A DNA stretch of 64,000 nucleotides from Vermamoeba vermiformis (taxonomy: Eukaryota): assembly GCA_045837725.1 (NCBI GenBank), contig JBEWZL010000013.1, positions 62,001 through 126,000 on the forward strand. The letters are read 5' to 3'. Made by a program: the position numbers and the translations under genes. A model generated the notes under the pieces. The model was given only the letters and a program-made list of their open reading frames with translations, was not told the DNA's origin and did no database searches. Positions 11,907 to 12,924 of this stretch are shown here, in pieces. Numbering within the stretch: the first letter of the stretch is position 1; the number at the start of each line of letters is the position of its first letter.

Positions 11907-12924
11907 ATGTTCACTCGTGCATTGCAAGTTGCGTCAAGTAAGGCGACATCTAGCTTAGTCAGAAAGGAGAGCCTTGTTACCTTGCAAAAACGAGCAAATT
12001 CTAGCGATGCATTTCAAGATGAGACGCACGATGACAATGGCTATTATGAAGAACCACCCCGCCAAGCTCGAGGTCAGATTTGCAAATATTTTTCTGTCTT
12101 CGAAAAATTTCTATGGCTTCAAATGCTGTACTTTAAGTGATAATATATTGTCATCGTAATTGTAGAAGGCTTATTTGAATTTTTAGAACGAGGCAGCGGG
12201 TTCCACGCCATCTACAGACCAAACAAAGAAATAAGCAAAGGAGCAGCGTTTCAATTCCTCTTCACGCCCTCAAAGAAATCTGTATTCATCACAGCAGCGA
12301 AGCAAAAGGTAAATAGGCTTACGCTTGTTGCTCGATCACGAATTACTGAACAAATGATCCGTCGCAGGGAGAAAAACTGCCACCCCGCACGAAAGGCGAA
12401 CAATTCGACTACAAGAATAAGATCGTCGTTAAGGTTGGTGTATCCGAAATGCCAGCTTTCTTGAAGGTCGGTACGCAAGTTTTCTGAACCAAACTGATCC
12501 GGGATGCAGGTGTTGCGTATGAGAGCTAAAGAGATGGACTTGCTTCATACTACCGAAAGGGCTACTCAAACTATCAAATTAAAAGCCGGCGAGAGGAATA
12601 CTTTCTTAATCAGCGTAAGTACAAGCACGTGGACTTAACGGCAATACTAACTGAGAATTACTTCAGTTGTCACGCAAGGAAGGTAATGGGTCGACTTATA
12701 ATGCCAAGGCCAACGCCAAGCCAGACCCTAGCGGTCCTCCAACTTTCGATGATATTCCGTTTGAAGAGGAGACGAAGGGAGCTCCAAAGACTGACGCGAA
12801 AGGTGCGGCAGCGGCCCCAGCGAAAGGACCAATGAGCATTGGCATGTACATAGACGAGAATGAAGCCATTGCTTTGGACGTATTCTTCACCGAAGCAATG
12901 AAGAAAAGCATGGGCTTTGAGTGA
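11907..12924 (+). CDS. Predicted mitochondrial Whirly/MRP-like nucleic-acid-binding protein (5 exons)
   Basis: Basic, Ser-rich presequence, then FHAIYRPNK...GAAFQF...VFITAAKQ...QFDYKNKIVVKVGVSEMPAFLKVL...LLH...IDENEAIALDVFFTEAMKKSMGF. This parallels the Whirly pattern (SIYK...QYDWSRKQVFSLSVTEI...FFH...KAEFAVL...LLGW). Confidence 0.6.

Follow-up and report, generated by a model that had tools for sequence, protein, structure and literature searches.

A Whirly-family gene of a microbial eukaryote with an FDDIPF block in a clade-specific disordered loop

The stretch of DNA analysed (the window) comprises 64,000 nucleotides of Vermamoeba vermiformis (contig JBEWZL010000013.1, positions 62,001 to 126,000), and the present account concerns one gene on its forward strand, at 11907-12924 (+), together with a short motif, FDDIPF, that the last exon of this gene encodes. 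The product is a Whirly protein, of a kind usually called plant-specific guardians of organelle genomes, the label ‘plant-specific’ also being found in review literature (PMC9070903), and the branch from which it comes is a poorly annotated one of microbial eukaryotes that Pfam leaves unlabelled. In a small clade of that branch the last beta-hairpin of the domain has received a disordered insertion, and the most conserved part of the insertion resembles the C-terminal tip of bacterial SSB, the protein that binds single-stranded DNA. The gene and its fold are taken up before the possible meanings of this resemblance.

Reading of the three forward frames over 11800-13000 gives a coding sequence of 750 nt for 249 amino acids, distributed over the five exons that a sequence-only reading of the window had proposed, all of them on the (+) strand. 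Exon 1 (11907..12072) runs from the start codon through a presequence-like N-terminus (approximately the first 30 residues, basic and hydroxylated) into an acidic linker of low model confidence, its last base (12072) being the first base of codon 56. Exon 2 (12187..12308) encodes the first three strands of the domain and contains KGAAFQ, while exon 3 (12368..12466) has an FDY-KNK block corresponding to the family consensus QFDW-NK, followed by strand 4 and the first part of helix 1, which falls within a predicted tetramer interface (residues 123-137). Exon 4 (12510..12614) completes helix 1 and, in the second repeat, encodes strands 5 and 6 and the beginning of strand 7, with a nearly invariant His (H144 in the relative P0001). 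Exon 5 (12667..12924) completes strand 7 and continues through the disordered loop, strand 8 and the C-terminal helix 2, also part of the tetramer interface, to the stop codon at 12922-12924. The four introns, all bounded by GT..AG, measure 114, 59, 43 and 52 nt.

The gene is real, expressed and spliced as modelled, since spliced contigs from public sequencing runs match the model. Among the matches listed, 20 runs from 11 studies contain part of the stretch (best share 0.38); four were compared with it over 11700-13100 and three of the four have spliced contigs. Those of X3, X7 and X8, which come from three studies, skip exactly 12073-12186, 12309-12367, 12467-12509 and 12615-12666, and a contig of X19, an RNA-Seq run, extends over 11869-12072 and ends with eight loose letters that are the start of exon 2. 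P0001, a protein of 251 aa, is the one longer protein to which the exon-5 translation led in a collection of 5.8 billion proteins; the exon-5 open reading frame of the window is itself in that collection, as P0076. P0001 is identical to the spliced model at 218 of 251 positions (87%), and because its 1098-nt contig is too short for an intron-bearing gene it is taken to be cDNA-like. All four introns are therefore confirmed both by the spliced contigs of three runs and by P0001. For intron 1 an acceptor at 12165 was considered, and it is ruled out by the P0001 alignment and the spliced contigs, which place the acceptor at 12186. Intron 3 (12467-12509) is no longer than 43 nt, and its donor, GTCGGT, is an unusual one; nevertheless this intron is removed exactly in contigs of three runs. 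The opposite strand has no gene-like frame, the longest antisense frame being one of 128 aa that is unsupported.

How is the family of such a protein to be recognized? A word-indexed search with P0001 recovered its own cluster only, and phmmer with the same protein against PDB sequences gave no Whirly match, the sole hit being chloroplast ribosomal protein S18 (E 0.1). The S18 likeness, over P0001 residues 88-150 (exons 2-4), is judged to be chance, as it consists only of a shared F/I-D-Y-K/R-N stretch and the fold is that of a Whirly. An exhaustive phmmer search of P0001 against 1.84 billion representatives detected 65 proteins at E<=1e-3, with 17 at <=1e-10. From these an alignment, A1, was made of P0001 and 57 homologues (58 sequences), leaving out eight fragments (P0011, P0031, P0038, P0042, P0046, P0050, P0052 and P0062). 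Pfam Whirly (PF08536) is matched by 50 of the 58 at E<=0.1, the best at 8.3e-14 (P0014, with 27.7 bits, and P0015, with 29 bits, stand above its cut-off of 23), and Pfam MRP (PF09387) by two. Among Whirly sequences of solved structure a profile made from A1 matches six distinct ones, with E-values between 1.4e-12 and 2.3e-10: PBF-2 p24 at 1.4e-12 and AtWHY1/3/2 and StWhy2 at 1.8e-11 to 2.3e-10, and it matches MRP1 at 4e-6 and MRP2 at 0.029. The nearest clusters in the ESM Atlas are Whirly clusters (score 0.91), and the Whirly clusters there are commonest in Euglenozoa, diatoms and oomycetes. Alignment by eye makes the KGAAFQ of exon 2 the counterpart of the plant KGKAAL motif, the family consensus being G-x-A-x-Q-F. 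In higher plants the motif serves ssDNA (single-stranded DNA) binding and the assembly of 24-mers, for which its second Lys is needed. A review that quotes the motif describes algal Whirly-like proteins as being without KGKAAL also (PMC9070903), so that the motif marks a higher-plant subgroup and not the fold family. The protein thus belongs to the Whirly superfamily, on a protist branch that borders on the reach of the Pfam Whirly model, and itself falls below current Pfam thresholds.

Structure work was done on P0001 as proxy. An AlphaFold2 model built with A1 has a mean pLDDT (predicted local distance difference test) of 78.3 and contains two beta-beta-beta-beta-alpha repeats, this doubled arrangement of four strands and a helix being a hallmark of the Whirly family, in which the sheets stand perpendicular. 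The first repeat has strands 62-68, 77-84 and 89-97, all encoded by exon 2, and 117-121, with a helix at 126-133; the second has strands 139-145, 149-157 and 163-171, then the loop, strand 222-228 and a helix at 230-247. Block-mean pLDDT is 94-98 in 12 of 13 core blocks and 81 in the C-terminal block. Foldseek against PDB returned 23 matches at E<=0.001, of which 15 were listed; each of the 15 is an MRP1/2 or a Whirly chain, with probability 1.0 and a target TM (template modelling) score of 0.60-0.78; Pur-alpha follows at ~9e-3. The Whirly/MRP-like fold proposed from the sequence thus holds, profile, AlphaFold model and Foldseek comparison being in agreement.

When four copies of residues 58-251 are predicted together, an ipSAE of 0.88 is obtained as against 0.13 for the best control, at least 97% of contacts recur between runs and the partner pLDDT is at least 72. 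Of proteins solved as pairs 21 of 30 attained the mark applied, and of those solved as single chains 0 of 23 did. Helices 123-137 and 230-251 form the predicted interface. Whirly tetramers already solved, and remembered by the predictor, may account for this pass.

The first 30 residues of the protein include six Arg/Lys, one Asp/Glu and eight Ser/Thr, with a maximal 18-residue helical moment of 0.42, and in residue composition the N-terminus resembles a presequence, as had been supposed. Among the 58 aligned proteins an N-terminal extension of at least 40 aa precedes the conserved Tyr in 18, most of these extensions being basic and acid-poor, and fewer than 25 residues precede it in 38. Mitochondrial import is plausible on these compositional grounds.

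The insertion itself lies in the hairpin of strands 7 and 8, at 12682..12831 (+), and is recognized as clade-specific from the homologue alignment and as disordered from its low pLDDT (block means of 46-70 over the corresponding P0001 residues, 172-221). A flexible insertion before the last strand had been predicted and is present, is disordered and carries FDDIPF; at approximately 50 residues it exceeds the 40 or so first estimated. FDDIPF is at 12745-12762, where the sequence-only reading placed it, these coordinates being those of the six core residues only (191-196 of 249). A wider string, PPTFDDIPFEEE, spans 12736-12771, and a conserved block, GPPTFDDIPFEEE, at 12733..12771 (+), is kept in P0001, in P0011 and in a metagenome locus, L001. 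As in the SSB C-terminal tip (SSB-Ct) there is an acidic run that ends in I/L-P-F. Since 53 residues follow its Phe, which is residue 196, the motif is an internal one.

The 57 homologues of A1 allow the history of the insertion to be outlined. The region is missing or garbled in eight and intact in 49, and 48 of the 49 have a short hairpin devoid of insert. The remaining one, P0012, has an insert of ~30 aa that reads P-A-F-A-D-S-T-M-T-E-D where P0001 has P-S-F-D-D-I-P-F-E-G-E, so that the motif is absent from this 41%-identical relative as well as from the other 48 with an intact hairpin. A quick IQ-TREE analysis of 50 rows, eight truncated rows having been dropped, places P0001 and P0012 as sisters (SH-aLRT 96), which makes the insert a novelty common to these two and the exact motif a younger one. 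Thirteen loop-bearing sequences are known to us from five lineages: the window (= P0076), the P0001 cluster with nine members, P0011 and P0077 with one sequence each, and L001, one metagenome locus. Identity over exon 5 between the five is 52-69 of 85 residues (61-81%).

Within this clade the block is kept to the consensus GPPxF(D/N)DIP(F/L)E(E/G)E while the rest of the loop drifts. The tip reads FDDIPF in eight of the 13 sequences, FNDIPF in four, all members of the P0001 cluster, and FDDIPL in the one from P0077. The Pro is thus retained in 13/13 and the Phe in 12/13, short of the strict Pro-Phe conservation of SSB-Ct, and acidic residues come after the Phe position in all 13. Comparison of the window with L001 shows 11 of 13 residues identical in the block GPPxFDDIPFExE, and for five of these the codon has changed silently. 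Elsewhere in the loop the number is 14 of 39, and in the final strand and helix it is 23 of 29. One spliced contig has a G>C change at 12759 that is silent in the Pro codon and an A>G change at 12767 that yields an E-to-G variant. The conservation of DDIPF in orthologues that the sequence-only reading looked for is accordingly found in part: five closely related lineages retain the block, P0012 and 48 others are devoid of it, and variants exist. To judge from the alignments, the motif looks constrained within the clade, but two tip positions vary.

Plant Whirlies provide a precedent for what such an element might do. Their acidic/aromatic tail is proposed to be autoregulatory, and in StWHIRLY1 the C-terminal Glu271/Trp272 touch Lys188 of the Whirly domain, with mutation of Trp272 raising ssDNA binding (PMC9070903). 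Their disordered tail is proposed elsewhere to serve protein contacts in a manner ‘analogous to bacterial SSB’ (PMC6963530). The chain considered here ends two residues after its last helix and so has no C-terminal tail, and the loop block is its sole acidic/aromatic flexible element. For these reasons, and given the plant precedent, we favour a tail-equivalent that has been relocated: a Whirly-type protein, probably mitochondrial and tetrameric on ssDNA, in which the loop motif is a tethered counterpart of the plant tail. Taken jointly these propositions are, in our estimate, a little more probable than their contrary. The data show the gene model with its expression, the fold, the family, a disordered loop and a locally constrained motif, whereas residence in mitochondria, tetramers in the living cell, binding of ssDNA and any function of the motif are inferred. 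The Glu271/Trp272 element, which like the block offers acidic and aromatic residues in a flexible Whirly segment, serves as the working model for the loop motif; it differs in being at the C-terminus rather than in a loop and in having another sequence, and its contact with the domain is described for potato.

Under the relocated-tail reading a presequence-like segment and acidic linker would lead into the two-repeat Whirly domain, and the two helices would most likely join four copies into a whirligig homotetramer, with ssDNA, and possibly also RNA, bound on and between the beta-sheet blades. For StWhy2 the description is of ssDNA held on the outer edges and between the sheets of neighbouring protomers (PMC7549692). 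Once the last beta-hairpin had grown, in the small clade, into its disordered loop, the block would act as a short linear motif and stand-in for the disordered C-terminal tail of plant Whirlies, four copies jutting from the blade tips of each tetramer. These copies may fold back on the basic/aromatic surface that binds nucleic acid, compete there with ssDNA and so tune affinity or higher-order assembly; in SSB, access to the protein's own DNA-binding domains is reportedly contested between DNA and the acidic tips (PMC10018359). Alternatively, or in addition, the motif may be a handle for a partner protein. If it does fold back on the DNA-binding blades then ‘tail’ function can move into a loop. 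The loop offers a clean test of how single-strand binders that do not have an oligonucleotide/oligosaccharide-binding (OB) fold regulate themselves and recruit partners.

Several observations weigh against the relocated-tail reading or the premises on which it is built. Neither the exons nor P0001 match any Pfam family at E<=10 (hmmscan), and membership therefore rests on transitive and profile evidence together with the fold; when ten relatives were checked singly, the sister P0012 reached 19.9 bits against the PF08536 cut-off of 23. The second Lys of KGKAAL is apparently missing in an alignment made by eye. In the Foldseek ranking the RNA binders MRP1/2 stand slightly above plant Whirlies. 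The loop residues lie outside the confident contacts of the tetramer model, which is neutral with regard to folding back. The disparity between the block and the rest of the loop has a Fisher p of 0.0034, a post hoc value since the boundaries were picked after the alignment had been seen. With both a D-to-N and an F-to-L variant the motif is not strictly fixed, and the five lineages are close kin that may have had too little time to diverge.

The last consideration leads directly to the alternative that survives best, namely that the loop is a neutral lineage-specific disordered expansion, its likeness to the SSB tip coincidental and its conservation due to short divergence time. The motif occurs only among close relatives that have 61-81% of exon-5 residues in common, the sequence of P0012 differs at the motif place, and there are polymorphisms within the motif. 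The chance of a DDIPF, at 3.2e-7 per position or 8e-5 per 249-aa protein, is calculated post hoc from generic amino-acid frequencies, and as very many windows were scanned a 5-mer with p ~8e-5 per protein is expected somewhere. Against neutrality are the L001 comparison, in which the block, with its five silent codon changes, exceeds the flanking loop in identity, the extension of the match to the upstream PP and Phe, and membership of a family that binds nucleic acid and whose plant members have an acidic/aromatic regulatory tail. We regard neutral expansion as unlikely, though it deserves to be taken seriously, and were it correct the finding would shrink to the annotation of one more Whirly-family gene.

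Could RNA, rather than ssDNA, be the ligand? That MRP1/2 rank first in Foldseek indicates that it may be. The corresponding alternative is a mitochondrial RNA-binding and annealing factor like kinetoplastid MRP1/MRP2, in place of one that binds ssDNA for genome maintenance, perhaps a heterotetramer with a paralogue, with the loop serving RNA-processing partners. MRP1/2 chains are the best structural matches (probability 1.0, target TM 0.72-0.78), the A1 profile does detect MRP1, two of 58 family members touch Pfam MRP, and P0012 may be a paralogue rather than an orthologue. MRP1/2 are also described as mitochondrial and as forming a tetrameric whirligig (PMC7549692), a shape that is predicted for the present protein. 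In sequence, however, the protein is closer to plant Whirlies than to MRP1 and MRP2, as the profile values and the 50 of 58 matches to PF08536 attest, and the model that passes its controls is a homotetramer, whereas the MRPs are a heterotetramer of two paralogues whose ligand is guide RNA, the RNA being bound via the backbone. A factor of MRP1/MRP2 type is in our opinion quite improbable.

More ambitious is the proposal with which the study of this locus began, that the loop is a true mimic of the SSB C-terminal tip which docks in the SSB-Ct pockets of bacterial-type enzymes of mitochondrial replication and repair, a Glu replacing the terminal carboxylate; the Whirly tetramer would then be a recruitment hub with four arms. 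The likeness does go beyond five residues: the E. coli tip is MDFDDDIPF and a 15-mer used in binding work ends PPMDFDDDIPF (PMC10018359), and PPTFDDIPF of the window and PPMFDDIPF of L001 resemble it along nine residues if two gaps, each of one residue, are allowed. The setting of the motif, in a disordered linker that belongs to a predicted tetrameric binder of ssDNA, is also the architecture of SSB, and the block is locally constrained, with acidic residues after the Phe in every loop-bearing sequence. Typical SSB-Ct pockets, however, are described as tripartite, the Phe entering a hydrophobic pocket, the Asp residues lying along a basic ridge and a basic lip anchoring the terminal alpha-carboxyl, whose contact is among the most important (PMC10164576), and an internal motif has no free alpha-carboxyl to serve as anchor. 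The Phe is one of the two most conserved residues of the SSB tip (PMC10018359), yet Leu takes its place in P0077, as Asn does that of the first Asp in 4/13. Because the motif is internal and has F-to-L at a key residue it is not classed here as SSB-Ct. The scaffold differs too, being a Whirly fold in place of an OB fold, and the motif is conserved in one small clade only, absent from the rest of the family and with FADSTM at its place in the sister. As originally stated, the mimic is unsupported, and we rate it as very unlikely.

A variant of the mimic may nevertheless be spelled out: a Whirly tetramer would have convergently re-invented the bacterial SSB hub, or captured it from an SSB gene, the internal PPxFDDIPFE(E/G)E docking with a neighbouring Glu supplying the carboxylate. 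It is a long shot. Homologues of RecA, RNase H, UNG and a Twinkle/PolI-type replisome are possible dock partners. Were the motif to recruit enzymes, this would be the first internal, non-OB SSB hub, and it would hint that pockets of bacterial-type SSB partners survive in mitochondria; were it a true mimic, an SSB tip could be recognized although internal and although borne by a scaffold other than the OB fold. The assertion made earlier that no described protein has the combination is too strong, as plant Whirlies have an acidic/aromatic tail that has been likened to SSB (PMC6963530, PMC9070903). None of the papers listed in the literature searches describes an internal motif like the SSB tip for a Whirly protein.

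The string F-D-D-I with acidic residues presumably fits several generic classes of acidic/hydrophobic motif, which counts for a protein that is not, or not only, mitochondrial and whose block is a cytosolic or nuclear short linear motif, activation-domain-like or of F-x-x-I type. Plant Whirlies are indeed described as nuclear also (PMC9070903), but with a presequence-like N-terminus, and with extensions, mostly basic and acid-poor, in 18/58 family members, this is the least likely of the alternatives and a very remote one.

One other protein among the 65 family hits bears on C-terminal tips. P0061 (173 aa) is the only one of them with a C-terminal extension ending ...S-S-D-T-P-F, which is SSB-tip-like at a true C-terminus; relatives of it were sought in the genome_contigs and viral_contigs collections and none was found there. 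A link of Whirly proteins to C-terminal SSB-like tips would on this sequence be anecdotal.

Set beside the plant Whirlies (StWhy1/PBF-2 p24, AtWHY1-3 and StWhy2; PF08536), the protein is alike in its two-repeat fold, profile similarity, N-terminal extension of apparently organellar type, helix-mediated tetramer, here a model, and flexible acidic/aromatic element. It differs in having no direct Pfam match, in keeping KGKAAL only partly, as KGAAFQ, in carrying the acidic/aromatic element in a ~50-residue hairpin insert instead of a C-terminal tail, and in that its host is a non-plant microbial eukaryote, as the neighbouring genes and short introns indicate. Outside plants there is also Tetrahymena TIF1, described as a distant homologue of the Whirlies, with ssDNA as its ligand and a part in the control of replication (PMC2377264), so that the Whirly family is not confined to plants; TIF1 differs in being nuclear.

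The family reaches further than eukaryotes. A 155-aa Whirly-family gene at L003:4007-4474 (+) matches PF08536 at E 1.9e-13 (50.9 bits against the cut-off of 23), and L003 is a genuine archaeal contig from a Ca. Micrarchaeia metagenome-assembled genome, on which TFB, TrmB and ribosomal S3Ae are encoded as well. Only 4 nt separate the start of the Whirly gene from a preceding 374-aa open reading frame that has no Pfam match, and a gene for a DHH-family protein is located upstream. On another contig, from Ca. Micrarchaeota, a 56%-identical relative of P0041 is encoded at L002:156-605. As archaeal contigs carry Whirly genes, many of the ~150-aa ‘short forms’ of the family may be prokaryotic. Among the papers listed by a literature search on Whirly in archaea, DPANN included, none concerns archaeal Whirly genes; whirly domains in bacteria receive mention in a Shedu preprint.

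As for the neighbourhood, all of it assessed by eye, an exon upstream of the gene, at 10959-11129 (+), has the glutathione-peroxidase-like motif NQFG-QEPG. Long open frames are present within 4333-8301, 21180-25652 and 28779-29788 of the window, and they suggest that leucine-rich-repeat genes akin to one another are clustered here, both strands being used. One further frame resembling these is at 21180-22709 (-). At 22790-25652 (-) there is what appears to be a receptor of family-C-like type, its seven helices accompanied by an ectodomain of periplasmic-binding type, and at 28779-29788 (-) there is a frame for an apparent AAA+ chaperone of ClpB/Hsp78 type.

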